A DNA stretch of 54,323 bases, filler included, from Catajapyx aquilonaris (lineage: Eukaryota): the NCBI GenBank assembly GCA_000934665.2. It is 2 parts of 2 records of this genome, joined end to end, with 100 filler letters (N's around TTAATTAATTAA, not from the genome) between each part and the next. Parts side by side here need not be neighbours in the genome. Positions count along the whole stretch, not along the records: positions 1 to 27,070 come from JYFJ02005113.1; 1 more part is not named here. One strand, 5' to 3'. Below the pieces are notes generated by a model. The model saw only the letters and a list, made by a program, of their open reading frames with translations. It did not search any database and was not told where the DNA came from. Position 1 is the stretch's first letter. Every line of letters begins with the position of its first letter. The position numbers were made by a program, and so were the translations under genes. Below are positions 1-27,170 of the stretch, one piece after another.

Positions 1-58
1 CCCCCCCCCACCTATACCCTTGTGCCCCCCCCTGAAAACATTTCTGGATCCGCGCCTG
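1..58. mobile_element. Right end of a non-autonomous TIR (hAT-like) element, truncated by the window edge
   Basis: C-rich tract ending ...aaaacatttctggatccgcgcctg; reverse complement CAGGCGCGGATCCAG resembles the CAGGG(G/C)CG termini of the MITE at 29794-30619. Confidence 0.4.
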
Positions 59-701
59 AACCAATGCCATAACTTTCCTCAACTGACAGAGAACGTTTAC
101 ATATGGATGTTCGAGTTATCAAGTTCTAGGTAGGTCACAGCACAGGGAATGAGCATTTCACACAAGCAGAGTGATTTTAAGACGCCCATCTGTTGATCAT
201 AATGTAGAGTACCATACATTTGAATATCCATCATCATATTCTTAAGTAGTCACTAGTCGCAGCTTCTTCAAGCTCCAGTTTCTTTCCAAAATTGTGATGA
301 AGGAGCTCAGCATTCGCAGAGTAGAGTTGCCTGAAGCAGTGTTCCCAACTGTTAATGTAGAGGACCACAGCTATACTCGTGAGAGACATGAGCCTACTAA
401 ATCCGCAAACGATTTTTGTAGACCTTACAGCATAGTCCATTTGAATCATATTCAGTTGTGTGATCTCACCGCGGACGACGTGGATAGCACCAAGTCATTA
501 CACCCATAAAAATGCCAGGATACCTCATTTTATACCCCATTTGAGTCATTGCCCCAATGCACAACTAGCACTGACTAAACTGATTTTATTAAATATCAGT
601 TTTAATACACAATATGCAACTTATGAAATTGCTCATCATCCACCATTACCATGGAAATTAAAATTCTGCTAAGTGTGTCCATTTTCAGTGCAAAAAAGTG
701 G

Positions 702-1035
702 CACGTCAACTATCTCACTATTCGGAGATCATCATATACCTGATTAAGAACAAAGCAACGTCAATTTAAATATATATATATATATATATATATTTCTATT
801 TGAAGGGATTTTCCGAAAGAACCGGTTTTTTAAATATAAAAACCGGGCTTGGTGAAACCGGTCCTCAATCATAAAAATGTATGCACGAATTGGCTATCGA
901 AAAACCCGCCATAAGGTTTGCCCTCGTTATTCATTCGACGTGGAACGCACGCGTTTTCTACTCTGTTCACATCTGTTCATTGAGACCAGGGATGTCGTGG
1001 ACCAATCCGGATCCAGAATATGCTGTGACGTCACA
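702..1035 (+). promoter_or_regulatory. Sec23 upstream region with CRE / TGACGTG-type bZIP sites
   Basis: CACGTCA (=TGACGTG) at 702-708, GACGTGG at 937-943, and palindromic TGTGACGTCACA at 1024-1035, 180-510 nt upstream of the Sec23 ATG. Confidence 0.45.
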
Positions 1036-1197
1036 AACCTGAGTGAAAAACCAACGCCTGGGTGGCAGTGGGGGTACTTATAATAAATTGAAGATTGCTG
1101 CACCGTGGTGGTCTTTGTGAGTCTGGTGTTGGACACGTCGTCTGCAAGTACAGTACAACACTAGTTACATTTGATCAGAGTGGAATCCTGCAGGTAG

Positions 1198-9228
<8,031 letters not shown>

Positions 9229-9578
9229 ATATATTTAATTGATAATCGATAATTATTTCAAATTGTAAGAATATTATTATTAAAGAATTTGTTGCGGGAA
9301 TGTAGGAATTTTTGCATTTGGTATTCCTCTTTAATAAATATGGTATCATAATGTACGGAAAATGAGAGAACGTCATTGTTTCTTCCATTGTCACTTTATT
9401 CATGTTCTGTGAGGGTATTTCCATGGAAACCTTGATGTCAGATCATTCTTTCATTTTCCATACGTACATTATTTGAAGAAACTCATACATGGATCAATGG
9501 AAACAAGCTAAACTTTACTTGGCAGAAGTTACCAACATAGGGAATGTACAGTACAAATTATCGTCACAATATAGGACC

Positions 9579-11144
9579 TTAATTCAAGAAGCGAATGGAC
9601 ATCTTCTGCTCAACGTCAGTGCGTTCCAAGACTTGGCAGAACTCTTCAAAGGAGATGGTTTGGTCCCCATTTTTATCTGCTTCCATTATGGTTCTTTCTG
9701 CAATGCTGGTGAGTTGCTCCTCACTAATGTTGGCTCCAACCATCATGTGCAAGACATTGAGGAGCTCTTCTCGGGATATCTGGTTGTCATCATCCAAGTC
9801 ATACATCTTGAAAGCAACTGGAAGTATCAAAATTTACCATTAACATTCAGTACACCTCAACAAAGGTTCTGTGTGTGAATGAGTTCTCAAAACTCACATC
9901 AACTGAATCATCATAAGATTAATTGCAGTCTCGCAGTTCTAAACCAAATTCTTAAATGCAACTGACTGATCATAAGCAAAGAAGAGAATAGTAAGCTACA
10001 CTCCATTGACACTCAGCTGCATCTTGAAATTATAATATGGAGTTTTTCATGGCAGGCACTGTTTCAGCATGGCTGCTGACTAAAACTGATATTTATTAAA
10101 ATTGATGAATCTGCACTACTAATAATTGTGCTTTAATACCTTAGTCGAAGGGACATTGCATGCTGCAACCAGTATTTCACAATCATTCCTTTCATTAAAT
10201 GCTGCTTTAAGTGAACCACAAGCAATTCTAAAAATTGGGTACCACCTATCACTGCCATAAAAATTCAAACCCCCGAACTTTCTCGTTAATCCTGTGGCCA
10301 TTTCAAATATGAAAATTGCAAACTCACATCATCATTAACCGCAGTGCTCAGTTTAGACAATTTATTTCGCACTTCTAGCTTTCATTTTATAAGTGGAAGA
10401 TCGGGCATGTTCCGAAGGAAAAATATGAATTGAGGAAAATGTGGCATCTACCGATTCTACACAATGCAGTGAAACCCATCTATAATGCAGAAATCTAGAG
10501 CAGAAACTTGCTCATTCCAGCACTTTGCTTGGCCCTGACACAGGATTTCCAATCTATTTCTGTCATAACAGAATCTTGTTCAGTACTAATAAATTTCATG
10601 GAACAAAGCAACTACACTATAAAGATTGCTTCACTCATTGCAGTCTTGCCTCACTCATTAACAACAAGGAAATTCATGGCTGTCCTTATTAGTCATCCTC
10701 CCCTTCAGCCCTCCAAAATGTAATTACATTCTAGCTTCTCCCGTCTGGAGTTGAGCCTGGACGGCTGTCCCCCACGTATCGGTCTGAAGTGTGCTAGGAC
10801 CGTCATAAACTGCCTGAAGTTGACTCGGTCATCTTTGCTATCTCGAAAGAATACATGCACAATACGATCGCCCAAAGGGTTGATAGCCAGTTCCGGTATC
10901 CTCAGGAAGTCCTCCCGGCTCAGCGACCCATTATCCCCCTTGTCCAGGCTAGTGAAGCGACTGTACAGCCGTTCAATCTGGTGAGGCGTAACTGCAAGCA
11001 CACAACATGTCTGTCATTACAAAACGGGGGCAAGGTTTCCATCACATTAACATGACTTTCTCTTCAATTCAACTTACATCCGGTTTCTTCCTGAATCTCC
11101 GCGATTTCTTCCTCTCGCAAGAGAAGTGACGATCTGTTGCCCAT
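9579..11144 (-). CDS. CHP1: Calcineurin B homologous protein 1 (EF-hand), 189 aa
   Basis: Exons 11144-11078, 10991-10728, 9817-9579 (570 nt). MGNRSSLLLREEEIAEIQEETGFTPHQIERLYSRFTSLD...LAINPLGDRIV...EF hands DLDDDNQISREE and DKNGDQTISFEE...DVEQKMSIRFLN; myristoylatable Gly2. Confidence 0.96.
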
Positions 11145-11541
11145 GATTCTTCGGCACACGCAGCCTCACTGGGACACAAAATTGACAAACCACGGTAACA
11201 AACCTACATACGCTGATACGCAAGGAATGTTCTGTACCAGACGACCTTCTACCAATCTTTTTTGTTACGTCACAACCTGCTGGTAACACTGAAAGTATCG
11301 GATAGATATATCGATATTTACAAATCATTCGAGCAAAAACATCGATATATGTTCTAACTTCACCATTAGTGGCACCAATTATACGTAATTAAATTTCTAT
11401 TCTATTTTATATTTCTTGTACAAATCTTTTCTCAGCACTTTATGCTATAGAAGTGTATAGAAGTATTGGAATTCCGTTTTTGAGATGATCTGGTAATAAG
11501 GGTGACAAGTGAAGGCGCAAGTCCCAGTGGCAACTGGAAAG
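11145..11541. promoter_or_regulatory. Bidirectional promoter of CHP1/NDUFAF1 with DRE motifs
   Basis: Head-to-head ATGs at 11144 and 11542; TATCGATA at 11309-11316, CATCGATA at 11340-11347, TTACGTCA at 11265-11272. Confidence 0.65.
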
Positions 11542-14500
11542 ATGGCGGCGTCCATGCTAGCCTCTCGTGTTGGACTGCTTGGCTGCCGATTGCTTGATTC
11601 CGGCGTGGGCTCAGTGCTGGTTCCTCGCCGGACCCGATTTTATGAGCCCGACAGAAAAGGGGGATACGCACGTCCCATCGATAAGTCTCAAGCAGAACTA
11701 GTCAGGGATGGACTGAAGCAGTTGAAGCAAGAAGTCAAGCTCTGGAGGCAGGAATTACAGGAGAAATTTACTGATGATCCCATCATCATTGTCAGGCCAG
11801 GTAACACTGACAGGCGTTTGGTGCAGGTGTCTTCTCGGTGAGAGTCACTTTGTACAACAAAACCTACGTGGCAAGGCTATACTCTAACAAAGCGCAAGTG
11901 TGCTTGGCATGCCCTTGTTACATGGTACAGCTTTGTTAATAATGTGCATTTATTTGTCAGTAGTATTAGTTGTTAAATAGTTTGTTTATGTGCAGGGGAA
12001 GTGGATGTGGTGTGGGGCTTCAATGAAGGACAGAAGTCTCTGGAGGCATGGATGTCTACAAGTGACAGTGACCATGGAGAAGGAAACAGCACTTGCAACT
12101 TAGATATGAGCCCAGCCGGAAAAGCTCTTTTTCAAGGGAACGTTTGTTCTCGGACTCCACAGGATGGGAGGATCAAACGGGCCGGATATTGCAATATGAG
12201 GACCCTAGTTCCAAAGGTATGTTATATTACAAACAATGCTACTGGGCAAAAAATATTTTTTGGGAACCTTCCAACAAATTTTGGTCACTAGCTGCCTCAA
12301 CTTTTGAAATATGTTGTTAATGGTTTAGGGAACATCACAGACACATGCAAATTGGGAAGGTTTTTTGAAATATTCAATTCTTACAAAAGTGTCAGAGTCC
12401 TTCACTGTATGATTCCACTTGACTCTTCAAGAGGTCATTCCAACGAGAGAATTACTTGGACTGGCAGTTATACTCACACTTGGTGCTGAATGTTCGTGGG
12501 GATGGCCGTACCTACCTGATCAACATTGGTACATCAGGATATTTTGATATTACATGGAATGATGTGTACCACTACGTGCTACACACCAGGGGAGGCCCCT
12601 ACTGGCAGCTGACGAAGGTAATATAACATGCTTTCCAGAACATGGCAGATTGACATTAAAACGTGATAACATGAGATAATTAATGAGAGCTACATTATCT
12701 GAAAGCTTTTTTCTTTCAAGGAATAAAATTATGTTAGAGAAAAAATAACAAGATGCATAGTTGGATAAAAATTTAGTTTTGTATTTCCACCTACATGAAT
12801 TTACTTTATGCTGGCTCCCATAAAAATTGCCACAAAAATGTAAACAAAAATTAACTACCATGGTGATTGTTAATTGCAAATTTTTAAAATGAATTTTTGG
12901 AATACCAGAATGTACCTGTAGAATGGGGCAACTTTGGACGCTTTTTGGTAATTTCCTAGCTGTCCCATGAAGACATATTTATCGAAAATTCTGAATTAAT
13001 GAACGTAGACAGTAGGAAATGTCGTTTATTGAAGACCATAACAGTTATTCACATAAAAGTTGTTTTTCTATGTTAAAATACATCATCTTGGCTGTCCTGA
13101 GTCACCCCACTAGGTGGGGTGTCTCCGGAAGCCCCTTTATTTCACATTGTAGAACGAGTCCACACATTAATGGTGAAGCCCCGGACATTATTAGAGTTCC
13201 TTTTTAAAAACTCATAAAGGTCCCCTCCAAACAAATGGTGTTGGTACAGTACTGGTACCTACTGTATCCCACAAGGGACATATTTTATGATACAACAGAT
13301 ATGAACGCCTGTATTGGCATGCTCATTCCACATGAGTATCATTGATGTCGCTAAAAATATAACACCCTCTGCGAAGGTCTCTGATCTTCGCCAATTTGTG
13401 AAGAACCTGGGTCACCACAAGACAACGAAAGAAACATTTTAGTTGTTTCTTTCACCGACATTTTTTTTTTGCGCATGAATATGACTTGGAACTGTTTCTT
13501 GATGCCCACTCAACGTAGCAGAGTAGCCCTTTTCTGAGTTTCTTTTCCTCCTCAAAAGTTAATGCAGGGTGCCCTCCATGTTTCTTTGCATGTTTGTTTC
13601 GGGTCATGTCCAAAATGGTGCTGCATGGAACCTGGTCCTTTTCTGCTGATTTTTTGCTGGCCTGATGTAAAGAACTTTGCATTTCTCATCGGGCACAGTC
13701 CATTCAAGGTCCTCAGTCCTGTAGTGTTGGTAAGGGCTCGCCCCTACAACTCTGATCTGTACTTCCTCCCCATGTCTGAAGTCACCTCACAAAATTACAG
13801 AAAGACACAAAAGTTATTGAAATTACGGCCCTGAATTTTTGTTCCAACCAATACTCTGGGACGAAGGAGAGAAATCATGACGCTACAAATCGGCTGTGTT
13901 CCAGTTTACCTCCGTACAGTAGGGGAGTGTGGGCACTAGTTACTTTGACACATATCTTAATGTACGTCGTTTTACGTCAGAGAAAGAAAGTGTGTAAGAA
14001 GTACTCTCAATGTGCATCTGGCTTGCTCATGTTGTATTCTGCAGCTCTGGAACCCACTCTGTCCAACGCCCTTGACAAACAGCTTTTTTAGACTCCCAAT
14101 AAGCGTCCACACTGACCCAAGCAGAGAAAAGTGTAAGCGTCCAATTTCACGCCATGTGTCCAAAGTCGTCAATTCTACGGTATGGGACAAAACTGAGTTT
14201 CAATTTTTCATATTATATTATTAGCAACCATTTGCACTAAAAATTGTTGCAGTTCGTGCCAAAAAATTATACTGAAAGAGATCCTTTTGACTGCTAAAAT
14301 GTCCATGGGACTCAGCAAGGGCCATGTGAGATTGCTAAACACCGATTTGCTATGGAGATATGCACCCAAGCATGTATTTTTACACAGCAGAGATTGATAA
14401 CACTGTGTCAATGGCATTACTTTGTTTGCCACAAAATTGGAGGTGTATGATGAGTGTAGCAGTAACTTTGAAATGTTACATGTAACCCTAAGATGTAACC

Positions 14501-15143
14501 TCTCACTTTTTATGCTTATTGGACAGCAGTTAAACAGGGGTAGATGGACTGCAGGATGGTCACTCTCCTCGGTATTCCCAGACAATGTACGAGGGCTGTA
14601 AATAAAGTAGTGGCAACACATCTCGAAAAAATCAGTGAAGTATAAGAAGTTTACACCGCTTATGCCACAGATACTCTTCGATTCACATTCCTACAAGGTA
14701 TCAAATTTAAGTAGTTGTCATCTCCCTTGATGAATATGAGGTAAATCTAAGTAGGGTGTAAAATTTAAAAAACTACATGGAGGAACAAACGCAATATTGT
14801 TTATTGCAATGGTTCTGACAACCTTGGATGACTGAACTCATCAAACCCCTATGTACAATTATTATGCATAGAATTAAAATAGTTCTGGTTTTTCTAATGT
14901 ACACAATATCATCAACAGATTCCCTTCTCACGCTTCTTCTTGTCAGCCAAAGGGCGGGTTCAGGACAAGCAACACCCAATTCCCTTGGACCGCATCAGTG
15001 CCTTTGGACTCTCCGTGGGTGGGAAGCCAGATGGGAATTTTCGTCTGGAGATAGACTACGTTGGAGTGGAGTTCGACCCCACTCACACAGAGGAGTTTGC
15101 TTACGAGCTGTACCGTGTGCCCAGATACATTGCGGGGGTGTGA
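11542..15143 (+). CDS. NDUFAF1: Complex I intermediate-associated protein 30 (CIA30), mitochondrial, 296 aa
   Basis: Exons 11542-11800, 11996-12216, 12432-12617 (AAG acceptor), 14919-15143 (891 nt). Arg/Ser/Leu-rich presequence; motifs [68 protein letters not shown]. Confidence 0.93.
12914..13900 (-). mobile_element. Decayed pogo/Tigger-like DNA transposon fragment in NDUFAF1 intron 3
   Basis: Minus-strand frame [10 protein letters not shown]...[20 protein letters not shown]...EW resembles the HTH-psq/CENP-B N-terminus; TIR-like cctgtagaatggggcaacttt at ~12914; many stops and frameshifts. Confidence 0.5.
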
Positions 15144-15154
15144 GGAGGAACAGG

Positions 15155-17884
15155 TTAGAAGCGTCTGACTGAGGCAGCTCCATTCAAAAGGTAACCAACT
15201 CCAGAAGCTATGGTGGATCCAGCTGTGAGCCAGCAGAGGGCATGGAATCCCCAGTGTGATTCCAGTCCAATGATGGGGAGGCTCAGTCCTGCTGCTACTA
15301 GGGTAAGCTGGACACCAGTGTTCAGCTTAGACTCGGAGGTTGGGCGGAGTTCAGCAGTCTTCAGCCGTCCATCCAGGTAGCGGCGGAGGGTGCGCTGTTG
15401 TAGAACAGTTTTATTTAATTAAAGTGCTGGTGGAAGAAGTCTTGTTCAGAATGCAGTCATTCTTGAACCTATCAATAACATGTGATCCATATTTAATATT
15501 AGTTCCCTGGGTGGTATGCACCATCACCACCACCTAACCTCTCAGCATCAAATAATTTCAAGCACCAGGAGCTGGCTGTAAGGGGCCACATTCTTATATT
15601 GCACAAATTAGAAAAGCTGCAGGCAGTGAACCATGCATCAACTTTTGGCATAATCATGGTAACTATTCCAAGCAATCTGGAAACAATACTTCGGAACCAA
15701 AGTAAATACATACAAATGGGACAGTGTGCTAGAAGCCTATGCAGTGTTGGGAGGAATATTTACATATGGGATGTTAAATGGAAATGTGGAACTGACTGGA
15801 ATGTTATGTGCATATGTAACCACATCCCCTCCCCCATGGAGAAAATTCAGACTGATGGTATAGTCACAATTACCTTCCATTACCCAGGGTAGTCAGTAAT
15901 TGGTGCTTTGTTCAGCAAGTAAGACGATTCCTTGGCCAATTCCAATATCAAACTAATTTATACAATTTTTGGCTGGGAGGGATCATTATGGTGTTATCAA
16001 TGCCAATTACTGTGAAGTCACCCATGCACTGCGGATTCAATGTCAGGAGATAGCCTGTAGGCTACACTACTTGAGCACCGCACAGTACCCAGCAGGAAAT
16101 ACCATGACATTCACACTGGTGATGTCACAAGAATGTATAGTCAATTGTCTCCATAATGCTGCCTCCCGGAATAAAATTTTCACACATGGTATAGGTCAAG
16201 AAATTGTCCTGCCTGCCCATTATGCAGGAGCTACTGACCACCTCTTTGGTATAAAATTACGTTTCTTATTTCACCTCTGAAATGTAATATGTTTGACATT
16301 TTCAGTTAAACATGATACCGTCTAGGCATGATACATTATGAAGAACGTCATCCTTGATTCACAATGAGTGCATTTACACTATAGTGACATTAATTGACTG
16401 GAGATAGCTTCATGAATAAATTGCATTATATATGAGCATTCTCATGGTTTTCCTTACTTACCTGACATTTCCACCATTTACAACAATGGCAATATAACCA
16501 GAAAGAAAGGTTTAGACTTACAGGTGGCGGGAGTGACTGGTAACGGATGTAAAAGGCAGCAGCTACCAGTGAGATATCCCGGCAAATGATCAGAGCGGTA
16601 AGTTGAGCTGCATTTGAGACATGAAGGAACGAGAGGAGTTAAAAGTTAGACAGAAATCTTGCTATTGTATGTCATGCACGTAAATATATTGTCACCTGGT
16701 ATAATTCCAATCCAGGACAGAGTGAGGAAGGAGGTGGCCACCAGTACCTTGTCAGCTAGGGGGTCCAGGAAACTTCCCAGGGCAGAGGCCTGGCTTTTGA
16801 AGTTACGGGCAATCCATCCATCTAACTGAAAAAAAAGATGTCCAATTAAACCTCATAAGCAGCTCATTCAACTGGCAGACTGCCATGATATACAACTACA
16901 CAATTATCACAATATTCGCAAATGGAAAAATGGCAAATAAAATATAGTGAATATGGCAAAAAAAGCAACTACAGTAAATATTGAAGCAATCTGTCACAAG
17001 ACCATTCGGAAGCATGCCGGAAAATTGTTCGTGCAGTAGGGGAGGGTTTTTTGTTGTGTGTTTTTTTTTTTGGTTTTTTGGGGGGCGGTGGAGGGGGGGG
17101 GGNGGGGGTTGGACTTTCATTGGCCTCGGAAAGGTAAATCCTGATCCTTGTCATATACTAGTTGAATAACCCTGCACTAGACATTCAAGATGTTGTAAGA
17201 GTGTTGCCTCAGCCTGTGACAAACAGATGAGGAACCATATTGACTTTTGAAGACAAATTTCATGGCTTCAATATAGAGAGAAATCTACATCACTTGACCA
17301 TTGATGTTACAAAATCACAGATTTTTACTGTGTGTTGCTAATGTCCCTGTTAAGATCTGAACACCAATTACCAGGTCAGTTATCCCAGCTACTCCAAAGA
17401 GGATGAGGGCAGGTCCAAAGTGTGAGTTGACAACAAGGTAACCCAATGGGGCTGACAAAGCCAACCTGGCGACACACAACATGTTGGGGATGGTGTACAC
17501 ACGGTCAGCCTCCTCCTTGAGATGGTCCATCACACGCTCTCTGGTCTCCTTTATGTCCCTGATAAGTGATTCTGACCGTGATCTAATTGTGTCCCTACGG
17601 CTCTCCAACGCCTTCCTGAGTCTGGTGGCACGTCGGGTTCTGGGAGAACTGTTCTGAGCCAAAAAAGGAAACTGCTGGTTCGCTATGGGTGCCAAAAACC
17701 TCATCGACGGTGCTGGGGTCAGCTGCATCGGCACGGTACGGACATGCAAAAGTTGCAGTCTGTGTCCCGGAGGCTGAGGTCGTGGCCATCTCCATCTCGG
17801 CAGGGAGGATGCAGGCGCCGCAGTGGATGTCACACTGGCACTCGCCCTCATAAGCCGGATGGTCCGGATTACCTTGGACGACAT
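15155..17884 (-). CDS. CRLS1: Cardiolipin synthase (CMP-forming), 322 aa
   Basis: Exons 17884-17372, 16825-16696, 16607-16522, 15394-15155 (969 nt). VYTIPNMLCVARL; CDP-alcohol phosphotransferase motif AGITDLLDGWIAR..SALGSFLDPLADK; last exon RTLRRYLD..LRPTSESKLNTGVQL..SVRRF*. Confidence 0.93.
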
Positions 17885-18262
17885 GTCCACGTCTCAGAAT
17901 TAGGTGACCACTCTTATATCATAGGCGTTCAGACAACGAATAAAAACAACATTCCCACAACTACGATTCGGGCATTCCAAGGCGCAGACATGTTGTATTC
18001 TGAAAGCGAAATTGCAATAGCCGCGAGTCTTCAATCACGGTGATTTTACCTGCTGGCTGATCCGCTCTTAGAAAATCACATTTTGGGTCATCCATATGTG
18101 GCAGTGTTGCCAAGATTATCAGCAAAGTAGCCAGGTGAAGGGCTGAAGAACAAGCGAGGGGCACGGTCCGCCCTTTCTGGTTGCGTCAAGCCTGCGTGTA
18201 GCAGACAGCCAGCACTTGTAGCAGACGTTGGGGTGTTGTGTTCAGACGTGACACGTCGCAGG
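17885..18262. promoter_or_regulatory. Probable bidirectional promoter of CRLS1/GNPNAT1
   Basis: 378-nt CpG-richer interval between the CRLS1 ATG (17884, -) and the putative GNPNAT1 first-exon ATG (18263, +). Confidence 0.45.
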
Positions 18263-21200
18263 ATGGGTTCTGCTGATGATGAAGTAGGTTATGGGTTTTA
18301 GGCTGAATGTTTTAGGCGGTGTGGGCTTCATGTACGTTATATCTGAGGGTACAGCACGGGGCACGGTAGAGCAGCCGGCGTTGGCTGTTGTTGCTGGCCC
18401 ATTTCACTTACTAGATTGAAATGTTGGAAGACTAGGTAGTAGAGGTCAGTAGCGAGAATATAGGACACAAAATGCTAGTGTTTGATATTTGTGATTCACA
18501 TATATGGTGGTGGACTACCAACATCTTGGTTAAAAAGGGACAGTAGGGAAGTTATGGATTGTTTGCCTCAGCAAGCAGCAACCAATTTAAAGAGAAGCAA
18601 ACCAGCATTGGAAGAAACAACACATTCACTGGTCATGTTGGTTGCTTCTTTTTACAATGGTTGCTGGGGTAAACAATCTGGGATTTTCCCACCTCACGAC
18701 TCCGGGCCTCATGCTACAACATGGTGAGAATTCCCATCAGCAAGATTCACAGTTCAGCTCCACCTGATTTTGACGACTAAAGGCTGATATAGTGGCAATT
18801 GGGAGGATGCTCTCTCTACTAGAATAGCATAGAGAAAGCCCTCCCCACAGCTGGAAGTTCTCGTTGCTACATTATGGCCTTGAGCGGAATAATCGGGTCG
18901 GATGGAACTCGCCAGTGAGAATTTTCACTGCCATGTGACAAGGTCCGTGGACTTTTTTATCAGTGGGGCTTAACATCGGCCTATTTCTGCTGCTAAGGCT
19001 AAACACCGATGCCAGGGGGTGGTCCTCCTCCTGGAAATTTGGCCACTCTGGGATCTTTAACGTGCACTCGCGCAATGTCACACGGGACTGACGGCTTTAC
19101 TGCCCCTCCAAAGGCAGGCAGACTCATTTTTCTACCACTCGGAGAAAAGTCACCAACCTTGGCCGGGTTCGAACCCACAACTGTGGGACTAAAGACAAGC
19201 GTGCTAACCACCAGACCACCAGCGTCGTGAACTGTGCACTTGCTCAGTGCATAATGCACACATGCTAAAATACTGTATATTCATGCAAAGTCCAACCTGA
19301 AGGTGTGTGCAGTCAAGTGTTGCTATGTGAATGGATTATATTTAACTCTCAAGTAGTGGCCTGCTAGTATACAGTGAGGTCTAGTCAAGTGGAATAATTT
19401 TTGTAATTCCCTCTACCATCTAAAACCGCTAGAATTTTTTTAGCTTGAATCACTTTGAATGTCTATTAGGCCACATTTACAAGTGAGCTATAAATCTAAT
19501 TGTTTGGGACGAAAGTAACAATCACATTTTGATCCCAAACAATTATTTCATCACTCAGCGATGCTCGTCACTGCACATCGATGATCAAATTGTTCACATT
19601 TATACACAGCCTTAATGCCTTTGGGGAGGGGCAAAACCAATCACAGGTTAGAAGTGAAGTATATGTGCGGGGCTGAGAATCAAAAACCATGCAACTACAT
19701 GTAGAGTAAAACTGAGATATTTGAGAAAAACCTGTCATTTCATTACTATAACAGTTTCAGAGGTCAACTTTGGTAAGCGATACGGTAGGCGCAGAGGCTG
19801 TTGATACATCAATATATGTGAAATCTATTTGCATTCGTTCATCAACAATTAAATATTGTCTGTTGCAGTTGGCGGGTTTTGATTCCGACACAACATATTC
19901 GGCGCTTTTCGATGTGAAAAGCTAATGGTGGATGCAATTATTGCAGTATTTCTTCGCTCATTTCGCACGCAGTAGTTGGCGGTTTTTGATGCAGACATGG
20001 CAGACACTGCAGTTGGCGGCTTTTGTTTCGCATTTCTCAAAAATTTGTTCCATAGTTGGCGGGTTTTGATCCTTAGCGTCTTTTCTCCCCTTGATTACAA
20101 TGGGAAGGAGTGCTTGTTTTGATGCCACATTCAGAGGTAATGTGCAGGGCACCCTTAAGAACCATATGCCATGTCAATCTAATTTTTTTTTGAAAATATC
20201 AGTTGGTGGGTTTTGATCCTCAGTCCCTCATTTGTGTGAACTGAGGCTCATTAGTAATATGAAACCTTACTTAAAGTGAGTCAGAAAAGTTATAACATTA
20301 TGTACAGAATCAGAACCTTCACAGAGGAGAACTTACGGTGGGAAAGGGGGCTATATTCTACCCATTTTTCCTATTCTCAGAAGAACTAAAAGTTTACAAT
20401 CATGTTTTATGTACGGTATTTTTTTCCAAGTAAAATGTAGAGAAAACCTCCTCTGCCCTTATAGACATCAGATATGCATTTTATACCATCTGGTAACTCG
20501 TTCTTACTGGCATGGTGTTAGATATGGGGTAATACAGTAGTTTTTGATTAACTCATCATTTTCTGTGAATGATTATAAAAGTACAATGATACAGGAAGGG
20601 TATTATTTCACTTGGAGTAATTCTAACTTGCTGAATGTACAGTATTATGCAAATATGTATCCTACATATGGCAGCCAAATTCAAATATTGTTGCTCTTCT
20701 GTGTGAACACTGAGCATGTATAAACTTGATGTCATATGCATACATGACTAACATGAGGTGTCGACTATTTCTCTTGATAAATCCACTTTTGCACCCTTTG
20801 GACAGTTTATGCCTTGTGGGATTGAACTAAAGACTGTCTCTTCCTAATCAACTTGATGGCATCATGTTCTTATGAAGAATGGAAAATGGATGACCTAGAT
20901 TTTTCTTTGTTGTTTCTGGGGATAGTAAATCACCAGCAGTTGATCAGTGCAAGCATATGAAATGAGCAGGAGAAATATGAGCAGACAAGGTCATGGAGGG
21001 GAACCCATCAGGTTTTTGCTACTCAGGTGTGCAGTCATGCTTTTTGGATGGTTAGGAGGTGTTTTGATCAGGTAGAACTGGATCCAATCAACTGAATGAC
21101 ACAAGGGGTAAATCACTCTTCAAGTCCGTTAAAGTACGGTATAAGGCTCCAAGTCCGACCAAGTCCGGGCTAAAGTTGGGCTTTTTACAAGTCTGTTATA

Positions 21201-24200
21201 CACTCAACTGCAGAGTGATTTATCCCTTGGAAGGACACCAAAATACGTATATTCCTGTAGTGTTTTCCTCCCTCCAGCAGTCTATGGGCTGGTATGAAAT
21301 CATTTCTAAAATTTCTCTACGTCTGGACCTTACCTGACTCCTGCCTAATTATATTGACTACTTATGCATTTTTTTTAAATCAGTAGGGCAGGGGGAAATG
21401 TGAGAAATCTTCACAGTGAAAATGGAAAGGATTTGAAATTGAAGAATAAATAACTATTAAAATTTAGAAGCTGATATCTAATCACTCTATAACCCTGAAG
21501 AGATGTCGAGAAACCTGCTTGTATTCTGGTGCTTAAGTACATATAACCTTGAAGAACTAGGTTGGAATGCATTAAACAACTAACTGTACAGGTTGGGTGA
21601 AAGGAATGACCCAAAGAGGCCTTGAGATTTGAAGGGGGAGAAAGTGGTGGCAGAGAAACAGGTGCAGAGAGCAAGAAGGTTACACGTTTAGTCTGGTTCA
21701 GCAGCCTTAGCAAAAATATGTGTCCTATTCAGATGCGTGAGGATTCACCACTCTACGATCCCTGCCTATTAGAAGATCTCCCTATGAGAGATGGGCTTCC
21801 CAAGACCATCTCAGGACTGAAATTACGACCTCTTCGACCATCTGATTACGACAGGGGTATGGTTTGATTTGCCTTTCCTGACAGTCAGTGACATACACTA
21901 CATACAAAATTCCATTGTGCTGCAGGGTTTCTTGAGCTGCTGTCCGAACTCACTGAGGTTGGGAGAGTGACTCGTGAGCAGTTCAATGGTAAGTGCAAGC
22001 ATCTTTTAATTTGTGTTAAAGACATCCCAATGTGTAATAAGTGATACTTTTAAATCTTTGCAGAGCGACTGAGGTCCATGAGGACCAACCCTCGAACCCA
22101 CTATGTGACAGTCATTGAGGACCTTGACTCAGGAAAACTGGCTGGATCAATCACGTTGGTAGTGGAACAGAAATTCATCCATCAATGTGCACTGGTACTA
22201 GTAGCTTCTTTACTTATCAAGTAATCAAGGGTGGGTTGTGTGATTAATGATAAGTCCAGAACAAGCAATGAATCCTATGGGAATAACATGGATGATGATC
22301 TTATTATGGATTTACCATCAATCAAATAAAAGCAGTCTAATATGGCACACTGCTGATTGTGGGGATGAGTACTCTGGATAAGCAGGTCAGGGGTTGAGCT
22401 TTGGATTAGTTGGATCCCTATATGAAGGTGATTAAACAAAGAGGGAAGTGTAGGACCAGGATTGGTTCGTTAAGAGATTCGCCTGGCTCATTCCCATTAG
22501 CTGATGCATGCCGAAATCCATATCATTCAAATAGCCAGCTAGCCACAGTTGCATTTGCTCCTTTGCACTCAAATGAACAGGATGACAGAAGCATAGAAAT
22601 GGTTTAAACCCGCCTGTTTGGAGACATTCAAGGGGAACATTTGTGGACTCATGATATGCAGGGTCATTTTTAGTTTTTGCCAATATCACCTGAAGTAGTT
22701 ATTTTTGTACGGCCTTTTGTGCCCTGATCCAGGTGCCCAATTATTCCCAGGTGGTCGAATATACTCGTAGCAGTTACTATGTAATAGGGCACCAGGATCG
22801 GAGCGCAACAGGCTGCACAAAAATAACAGCTTCTAGCAAAATTTCCTATAACTAATGTGACTCACATGATTACTTGGCACAACCTGCATATAACTTTTGA
22901 CAGATTGTCATATGTGGAATGTGAATCAGATAAGAGCCTTGAGAATTTGTTGGTTCTCCTTAAGATATGCACCAAGGAGGAGAGAGCTCTTATGAACATG
23001 AGAAAAGTACAATAATTTGTTACAAAATTTCTGTATGTGATGCTATTTAGAGGGTCAGTTGCATATTACATATATGGTATTCATAACTTCAGGTAGTTTG
23101 TCAATATATAGTGTGAATTGCAGAGCATATGTTTATAAAGGTGGGGTTTACCATCAGATGTGCACAGTGGTGGAAATTAATGGAGAAGGACACGTATTGC
23201 CTCCTGGCGGAGTTTTTCCTTTACATAAAGCTGATTCATTTAAAGTTTCTATATCTATTTCACCTAGGCCAGTGCAGTTCTTCTGCAAGAGTACCTTCTC
23301 TTTTCTGGAACTTCTTACACCACTCGAAGGTGCATAACCGAGATACATGATATGTCCGTATTGCACCCCTGCATTCTCCTATAATTTTCAAAGGGTTTTG
23401 TCCTTTTCATGCAGAAAGTCAAATAATATCTCTATGCTCTTCTGTAGTACCTGTCTGATGGGGCACCACCATCTTTAAACAGATGCTATACAACTCTCTC
23501 TCCACCTATTGAGAAACTGTCGGAGGATATGAATCCACAACTGTCTCTTTCACACATCATGCCAAATGGCTGGTTAAAAATTTTTTCTGCACTATTAACC
23601 TTTTCAGTTGATCAAGGGATCATGGGGTGTCTCATTCCATCAGACTCACTCCCCTGAGGTCATGCTATAACTGGTCATGGACCTCAACCTCCATCAGGGG
23701 CTCCAATGTTATTATGAATGAAGAGTAATGTGAATTTATTGGGATATTCGAAGTGTTAATCAGCCACACATGTAGGTCTCAGGGATCCACAATATACTGT
23801 GACAGATTGAGAAAAAGACATCCATGTAAGTATTACCACTGCCTGGTGTTACCCAACACGTCTATTTTTTTGGTATCTGGGAAAATCATATAGGTCATCA
23901 GATAACATTGTGATGGATTTTACACGTAATAGTTGAAAATTCATGATACCCTTATTAAATTCCATAATCTACCTTCATTGGCATAAAAATATGATAATAT
24001 GAGAGGATTGCATATCATGTGATGATAACTTCAGTATTGCATGTGGCAATTAGAAAGTTTTTCACGTAACCCTTGAATCATTTATAGATTTAAACCGCGA
24101 GTAATTGAGAGGAAAAGGCATGTGGCAGCAATCAACTTGGTGTCACACACAATGTCCTTTATGATTTATTTATTTTTTAATTTTTTAAATACCCCGTGAT

Positions 24201-27070: not shown

Positions 27071-27170
27071 NNNNNNNNNNNNNNNNNNNNNNNNNNNNNN
27101 NNNNNNNNNNNNNNTTAATTAATTAANNNNNNNNNNNNNNNNNNNNNNNNNNNNNNNNNNNNNNNNNNNN
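27071..27170. other. Artificial scaffold/concatenation spacer
   Basis: 44 N + TTAATTAATTAA (27115-27126, stops in all six frames) + 44 N, exactly 100 nt. Confidence 0.95.

Follow-up and report, generated by a model that had tools for sequence, protein, structure and literature searches.

An antisense overlap between the convergent NDUFAF1 and CRLS1 genes of Catajapyx aquilonaris

The window, a 54,323-nucleotide (nt) stretch of Catajapyx aquilonaris DNA (assembly GCA_000934665.2; two records joined end to end, filler included), carries two genes that face each other tail to tail, NDUFAF1 (CIA30), encoding a complex I assembly factor, on the plus strand and CRLS1, encoding a cardiolipin synthase, on the minus strand. 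Their stop codons are separated by only 11 nt. The two genes form a genuine convergent cis-natural antisense transcript (cis-NAT) pair: they lie on opposite strands with facing 3' ends, both are transcribed and they share sequence, while the extent of the transcript from each strand is predicted. The overlap is best understood, with a probability of roughly three in four, as a structural by-product of the loss of spacer and of the CRLS1 C-terminal tail.

Gene structure at the convergent junction

The NDUFAF1 stop codon was read directly in the sequence as TGA at 15141-15143 (+) and that of CRLS1 as TAA at 15157-15155 (-), where the plus strand has the letters TTA (15155-15157). The stop codon positions and the 11-nt spacing given in the original prediction were exact to the base. 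The splice acceptors CAACAG/ATTCCC and CAACAG/CGCACC place the beginning of the last exons at 14919 (+) and 15394 (-), respectively. Polyadenylation (poly(A)) signals were sought with 18 hexamer types known from the literature on such signals. On the plus strand, the first hexamer downstream of the NDUFAF1 stop was an ATTAAA 275 nt away, and the nearest canonical minus-strand hexamer downstream of the CRLS1 stop was an AATAAA (TTTATT on the plus strand) 350 nt away, which confirmed the two signals originally picked as the nearest canonical ones. A weak AATAAT was present on the minus strand 292 nt downstream of the CRLS1 stop, and neither AATAAA nor any one-mismatch variant was found on that strand between 15154 and 14919. 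The coordinates of all features are collected in Table 1.

Table 1. Coordinates of the features at the NDUFAF1/CRLS1 locus, counted along the window (ORF, open reading frame; UTR, untranslated region; cDNA, complementary DNA)
Feature	Position	Strand	Basis or remark
Spacer separating the two stop codons	15144-15154	none	11 nt, GGAGGAACAGG
NDUFAF1 coding exon 1, ATG 11542	11542-11800	+	cDNA record 1 with GT..AG joint; ORF check
NDUFAF1 coding exon 2	11996-12216	+	cDNA, ORF check; CIA30 Pfam match on ORF 11977-12291
NDUFAF1 coding exon 3	12432-12617	+	cDNA, ORF check, CIA30 Pfam match
NDUFAF1 last coding exon, TGA end	14919-15143	+	Sequence, cDNA, ORF; CIA30 E=1.3e-8
CRLS1 coding exon 1, ATG 17884	17372-17884	-	cDNA (contig extends to 17972), ORF, homology
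CRLS1 coding exon 2, DG..AR..G..D..D motif region	16696-16825	-	cDNA, ORF; PF01066 E=3e-11
CRLS1 coding exon 3	16522-16607	-	cDNA, ORF check
CRLS1 terminal coding exon, TAA 15157-15155	15155-15394	-	Joint 16522 to 15394, ORF, homology
Proximal ATTAAA	15418-15423	+	Candidate of the original prediction; RNA reads through; GT-rich stretch then follows
Distal AATAAA	16415-16420	+	12 nt ahead of cDNA contig end; T/GT-rich stretch downstream
Candidate CRLS1 poly(A) signal AATAAA	14805-14800	-	Within the NDUFAF1 last intron; T-rich stretch next
Probable NDUFAF1 3' UTR, ~1289 nt	15144-16432	+	Record 1 to 15394 plus record 2; strand inferred from AATAAA (+)
Predicted CRLS1 3' UTR	14785-15154	-	Inferred: no AATAAA-like hexamer 15154-14919; AATAAA 14805-14800, T-rich next
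Largest possible mature-mRNA complementarity, 476 nt	14919-15394	none	Exon bounds from cDNA and ORF
cDNA record 1	11534-11797, 11993-12213, 12429-12615, 14917-15394	unstranded	NDUFAF1 mRNA through its own stop
cDNA record 2	15365-16432	unstranded	Unspliced, colinear with the genome; RNA extending into the CRLS1 last intron
cDNA record 3	15365-15394, 16522-16607, 16696-16825, 17372-17972	unstranded	CRLS1 mRNA

The plus-strand gene is identified by its sequence as NDUFAF1/CIA30, as originally assigned. The CIA30 family (PF08547) was found in three of the four ORF pieces, those of exons 2, 3 and 4 and thus including the last exon, and the matches, each over the 24-bit cut-off, jointly span positions 5-157 of the 157-position profile. 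For exon 3, identities of 61-79% were found with 65 proteins, all of which contain PF08547 and many of which are named complex I intermediate-associated protein 30; those with an organism name were arthropods without exception (24/24, mostly insects, with two springtails and one decapod), in line with an invertebrate, probably arthropod, host. The spliced ORF is intact, encoding 296 amino acids (aa) from the ATG at 11542 to the stop at 15143, and every intron is bounded by GT..AG. The ORF has an N-terminal extension and is expressed, as a spliced cDNA contig, and the protein is presumably mitochondrial.

The assignment of the minus-strand gene was similarly upheld. The CDP-alcohol phosphatidyltransferase family (PF01066) matches exon 2 as well as, at E=2e-4, exon 1. 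Exon 2 is 67% identical to one relative, P0004 (LDGWIARNF...LGSFLDPLADK), in the region of the DG..AR..G..D..D motif. The terminal exon had no Pfam match, word-indexed protein searches gave no match for the terminal exon or for exon 1, and exon 1 had no match in the PDB. An exhaustive HMMER search with the terminal exon, cut at E<=1e-3, returned 236 relatives, of which the best are 43-51% identical and align at the C-termini of proteins of ~290-390 aa. PF01066 was present in all 20 of the relatives that were scanned, and P0004 is colinear with exon 1, exon 2 and the terminal exon. Ten clusters of relatives were looked up, all of them invertebrate; of the seven that were named, four were called cardiolipin synthase (CMP-forming) and three hypothetical or uncharacterized. 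The best NCBIfam matches were pgsA and ClsA, all under the curated cut-offs since the scan was limited to fragments of exons, and an Atlas look-alike search, taken as a lead only, placed 27 of 30 named matches within the PF01066 set (score 0.94). The spliced ORF is intact (322 aa, ATG 17884 to the stop at 15155, every intron GT..AG). By sequence the gene is thus the CRLS1 ortholog rather than another CDP-alcohol transferase, and its enzymatic activity and inner-membrane location are those suggested by the family names.

Two further features of CRLS1 were observed. Its C-terminus (window 15155-15230; …SVRRF followed by the stop) is without the lysine-rich tail found in all five aligned relatives and in the metagenome locus L019 described below, where the protein extends 3-16 residues further. 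A single N at 17103, in the first CRLS1 intron, adjoins a low-complexity run (17044-17102), masked as a repeat in the contig alignment.

Transcripts across the junction and extent of the overlap

The transcript data consisted of assembled, unstranded contigs from one public run (X1), which were aligned to positions 11200-18200. The kind of library is not on record, and X1 was identified as cDNA from its splice joints, the contigs having six joints of the GT..AG or CT..AC type and no base differences from the window. The cut ambiguity at the contig joints was settled to GT..AG in fixing the exon bounds. The NDUFAF1 and CRLS1 mRNAs were both present in the run.

Transcripts with different last exons had been named as the outcome that would speak against an overlap, and the cDNA showed the reverse, as the joints 12615 to 14917 (NDUFAF1) and 16522 to 15394 (CRLS1) enter exactly the predicted last exons. 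Record 1 covers 14917-15394, the 11-nt spacer included, without a break, a differing letter or a gap, and because each 31-mer of a contig is drawn from a single read, there must be RNA molecules that bridge the spacer and contain both coding ends. There are Ns elsewhere in the window (the run 27071-27170 and single Ns at 17103, 36039 and 37832), which were read as assembly gaps or ambiguous bases, and which could raise the suspicion that the 11-nt spacing arose in the assembly or that transcripts escape the overlap by way of other last exons. However, record 1, an independent cDNA contig, matches 14917-15394 to the letter and both joints lead into these last exons. Since the last exons of both gene models are found in cDNA, the spacing is not an assembly artefact, and this explanation is so improbable that it can be set aside. 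The original proposal that each 3' UTR is antisense to the last exon of its partner stands insofar as the overlap is obligate, both last exons are used and RNA spans the spacer.

Record 2 crosses the CRLS1 exon/intron boundary (15394/15395) unspliced and continues for 1038 nt into the intron. It ends at 16432, 12 nt past the AATAAA at 16415-16420 (+) and just before a T/GT-rich stretch. Only 63 of the 1127 intron positions (5.6%) are located 10-30 nt past an AATAAA or ATTAAA. The RNA from 15395 to 16432 was assigned to the plus strand because the contig end lies 12 nt past this AATAAA (+). Thus, NDUFAF1 probably has a 3' UTR of about 1.29 kilobases that is antisense to all of the CRLS1 terminal coding exon and to most (1038 nt) of the last CRLS1 intron. 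No X1 contig aligned to any of the remaining five NDUFAF1 and CRLS1 introns. There were no Rfam matches at E<=0.1 within 11000-18500 and no Pfam families in seven intronic ORFs of both last introns, so these databases provided no alternative explanation for the record 2 RNA.

The original prediction placed the NDUFAF1 end at the ATTAAA at 15418. The cDNA contig, which reaches 16432, past the AATAAA at 16415, speaks against this as the sole end, although the proximal signal is possibly also used, with transcripts ending near 15440. A version of the proximal end in which the RNA at 15395-16432 represents unspliced or intron-retaining CRLS1 transcripts, or an internal CRLS1 start, draws on the GT-rich stretch downstream of the ATTAAA, on the unstranded nature of the contigs and on the chance that the remaining 89 nt (16433-16521) were perhaps dropped by the assembler as a short dead end. 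Nevertheless, it is rather doubtful, in that it leaves to a 5.6% coincidence the termination of record 2 12 nt past a canonical AATAAA (+), the other five introns are free of aligned contigs, and record 3 passes the 15394/16522 joint without a branch.

The arrangement of signals on the minus strand suggests that the CRLS1 3' UTR most likely extends through the entire last coding exon of NDUFAF1 and ends at about 14785. The originally estimated ~460-650 nt of complementary mRNA has to be reduced to an upper bound of 476 nt (14919-15394), because the remainder is intron for the partner gene. If record 2 is indeed the NDUFAF1 UTR, at least 240 nt, the CRLS1 terminal exon, are covered.

Origin of the arrangement

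The preferred explanation, that the overlap is a by-product, begins with an intergenic spacer that would have shrunk to 11 nt through loss of spacer and tail in a packed locus. As no room is left for a 3' UTR of its own, each gene would have to be cleaved and polyadenylated at a signal within the last intron of its partner. NDUFAF1 transcription would traverse the whole CRLS1 terminal coding exon and end at ~16432 (AATAAA 16415), possibly also at ~15440, while CRLS1 transcription would traverse the whole NDUFAF1 last coding exon and end at ~14785 (AATAAA 14805-14800), so that converging polymerases would cross the terminal exons of each other's genes. A regulatory outcome, by way of double-stranded RNA (dsRNA), small interfering RNA (siRNA) or polymerase collision, would be no more than a possibility.

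Other loci were sought in metagenomes with a six-sequence alignment of the CRLS1 terminal exon (A2), which yielded 51 loci encoding relatives; a pattern could not be designed from a 25-sequence alignment, whose members were too diverse, and the terminal exon by itself gave 592 metagenome pattern matches, none of which was confirmed. The window NDUFAF1 matched one of the 51 loci by tblastn (L019, E ~1e-57), and raising the threshold to E<=5 added merely two chance-level matches (L036 and L029). L019, which is from another organism, has the same convergent order, with the CRLS1 (+) TGA ending at 1977 and the NDUFAF1 (-) TAG at 2129-2127, but the stop-to-stop spacer is 149 nt compared to 11 nt in the window. 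The L019 spacer contains an ATTAAA on each strand, at 2038 (+) and 2029-2024 (-), and consequently the L019 UTRs need overlap only each other and not the coding sequence of the partner. The NDUFAF1 last exon encodes 74 aa in both the window and L019, is 56% identical and has the same end position, whereas the window CRLS1 tail is 16 residues shorter than that of L019 and the shortest of the six in alignment A2. The equal NDUFAF1 last exons together with the shorter window CRLS1 fit a loss of spacer and tail in the lineage of the window.

L019 differs from the window in having extra short introns and in its surroundings. Exons of the RICTOR N-terminal domain (4774-5456; PF14664, E=6e-21 and 5e-9) run in the opposite direction to NDUFAF1, so that the outer neighbor past NDUFAF1 is RICTOR in L019 and a CHP-like gene in the window. 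The outer flank of L019 had no tblastx similarity to the window, the NDUFAF1-CRLS1 pair being all that is common to the two. Neither the CHP-like gene nor Sec23, another gene of the window, was found in any of the 51 loci, and seven intron-bearing loci (L004, L005, L014, L020, L022, L024 and L037; 2.3-4 kilobases of downstream flank, taxa unassigned) had no CIA30 match. In the assembly of the mayfly Ephemera danica the two proteins are encoded on separate contigs (1,431,748 and 154,037 nt) and are therefore not adjacent. In the comparison of synteny and stop distance suggested in the original prediction, the convergent pair recurred in one of the 51 metagenome loci (L019), without the 11-nt spacing, and the genes were apart in Ephemera danica.

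L019 also contains an inverted segmental duplication of ~750 nt (173-920 and 2684-3512; five collinear arm pairs, 88-92% complementary), which leaves a second, diverged copy of the 5' half of NDUFAF1, with its promoter region and first exons, immediately ahead of CRLS1 and on the CRLS1 strand. The CRLS1 match in L019 begins, in this duplication context, only at residue 121. It may be that the duplicated arm is a pseudo-copy, that it serves as a borrowed promoter or presequence, or that it reflects a mis-join of the metagenome. In the window there was no second copy of NDUFAF1 or CRLS1 and there were no inverted repeats.

The overlap might instead be a selected regulatory module, in which dsRNA processed to endogenous siRNA (endo-siRNA), editing or polymerase interference couples the complex I assembly factor with cardiolipin synthesis. 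The same tail-to-tail pair in L019, between different outer neighbors (RICTOR as opposed to the CHP-like gene) and a flank without tblastx similarity, favors this idea. Cardiolipin and complex I have an established functional link, the closest named CIA30 relatives are from arthropods, and arthropods possess a Dicer-2/Ago2 siRNA pathway. Given these relatives, the endo-siRNA analogy is reasonable but unproven. According to one report (PMC13228617), the size of such effects differs greatly even between sister fly species: in D. simulans testis the mRNAs repressed by Ago2 number in the hundreds, some of them in cis between bidirectionally transcribed loci, whereas in D. melanogaster repression by endo-siRNAs is confined to less than a dozen transcripts. 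Several findings speak against a module. The separate ATTAAA on each strand of the L019 spacer indicates that the overlap of coding sequence is not conserved, the genes are not adjacent in Ephemera danica, and both mRNAs were present in one run with an overlap free of base differences, in contigs that hide rare variants such as editing. Overall, a selected module is unlikely. A more elaborate version is less likely still. It would have an old tail-to-tail NDUFAF1-CRLS1 unit selectively retained in an arthropod lineage amid reshuffling of the flanks, with the 3' complementarity (UTR to UTR in L019, UTR to coding sequence here) keeping complex I assembly and the supply of cardiolipin in balance by way of dsRNA/siRNA or polymerase collision.

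Several considerations weigh against the by-product explanation and the transcript extents on which it draws: 1) record 1 alone proves only that there is spacer-bridging RNA, as an unstranded de Bruijn contig may chain reads from two genes, 2) CRLS1 pre-mRNA or intron retention, with cover that ends at 16432 by chance, could also account for record 2, 3) the transcript support comes from one run of one study, and 4) the pair was kept in L019 despite different outer neighbors, a possible hint of selection on the pairing that would not be expected of a by-product. No contig covered 12616-14916, the stretch in which the predicted CRLS1 UTR would end, which counts neither way, since contigs drop rare or short branches.

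The window contains a second convergent pair (9139-9581), in which the Sec23 stop (9226-9228, +) and the stop of the CHP-like EF-hand gene (9579-9581, -) are only 350 nt apart, and the 3' UTRs of these genes may overlap too. Tight tail-to-tail packing is therefore a local habit of this genome. Roughly one gene in 15 is estimated to be mitochondrial, so that two mitochondrial genes as neighbors are not beyond chance.

On its upstream side NDUFAF1 is head to head with the CHP-like gene (-). A cDNA contig covers 11200-11433 and extends toward the latter, and the NDUFAF1 contig begins at 11534, 8 nt upstream of the ATG, which suggests a bidirectional promoter of ~100 nt for the two genes. CHP1 and NDUFAF1 are presumably linked on human 15q15 as well. 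Elsewhere in the window, the exon encoding the Sec23 trunk domain (4618-5244) has a Gly/Pro-rich low-complexity insertion of ~55 residues that splits the Pfam match (175 residues across 123 profile positions), and ORFs at 21610-22224 (+) (…LKLRPLRPSDYDRG…, …YVTVIEDLDSGKLAGSITLVVEQKFIH…) resemble by eye a GNAT-type glucosamine-phosphate N-acetyltransferase, a candidate only.

Significance and relation to known antisense pairs

Even if the overlap is only structural, it bears on annotation, as each 3' UTR and poly(A) signal is placed inside the partner gene. Unstranded RNA sequencing would mis-assign reads between NDUFAF1 and CRLS1, and a knock-down or edit of either terminal exon would affect both genes. 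An arrangement that proved to be both conserved and regulatory would amount to a compact case, found in nature, of antisense coupling between a respiratory-chain assembly factor and the production of a lipid required by complex I. The literature search turned up no paper on NDUFAF1 and CRLS1 as a pair, and the papers naming both are, by title and abstract, gene lists.

Convergent cis-NATs are already known as a class, of which NDUFAF1/CRLS1 is a further example. Such tail-to-tail pairs have been catalogued in animals (Zhang et al. 2006, PMC1524920) and are like the present pair in being protein-coding genes on opposite strands that overlap through their last exons. The difference is that the stops of NDUFAF1 and CRLS1 are 11 nt apart, so that a UTR must cover the coding exon of the partner and not its UTR alone. 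In Arabidopsis, pairs of convergent genes that share a polyadenylation region (PMC3032780) likewise have neighboring sense and antisense transcripts with long overlapping 3' regions; they are plant genes with a shared poly(A) region, whereas the candidate sites of NDUFAF1 and CRLS1 are separate, each in an intron of the partner. In Drosophila, endo-siRNAs arise in part from mRNAs transcribed convergently (PMC11840564). Those 3' UTR cis-NAT loci, with their Dicer-2/Ago2 endo-siRNAs, resemble this pair in having convergent mRNAs with a perfectly complementary 3' region, but endo-siRNAs have been observed at the Drosophila loci, while NDUFAF1/CRLS1 is known from genomic sequence and cDNA contigs alone.

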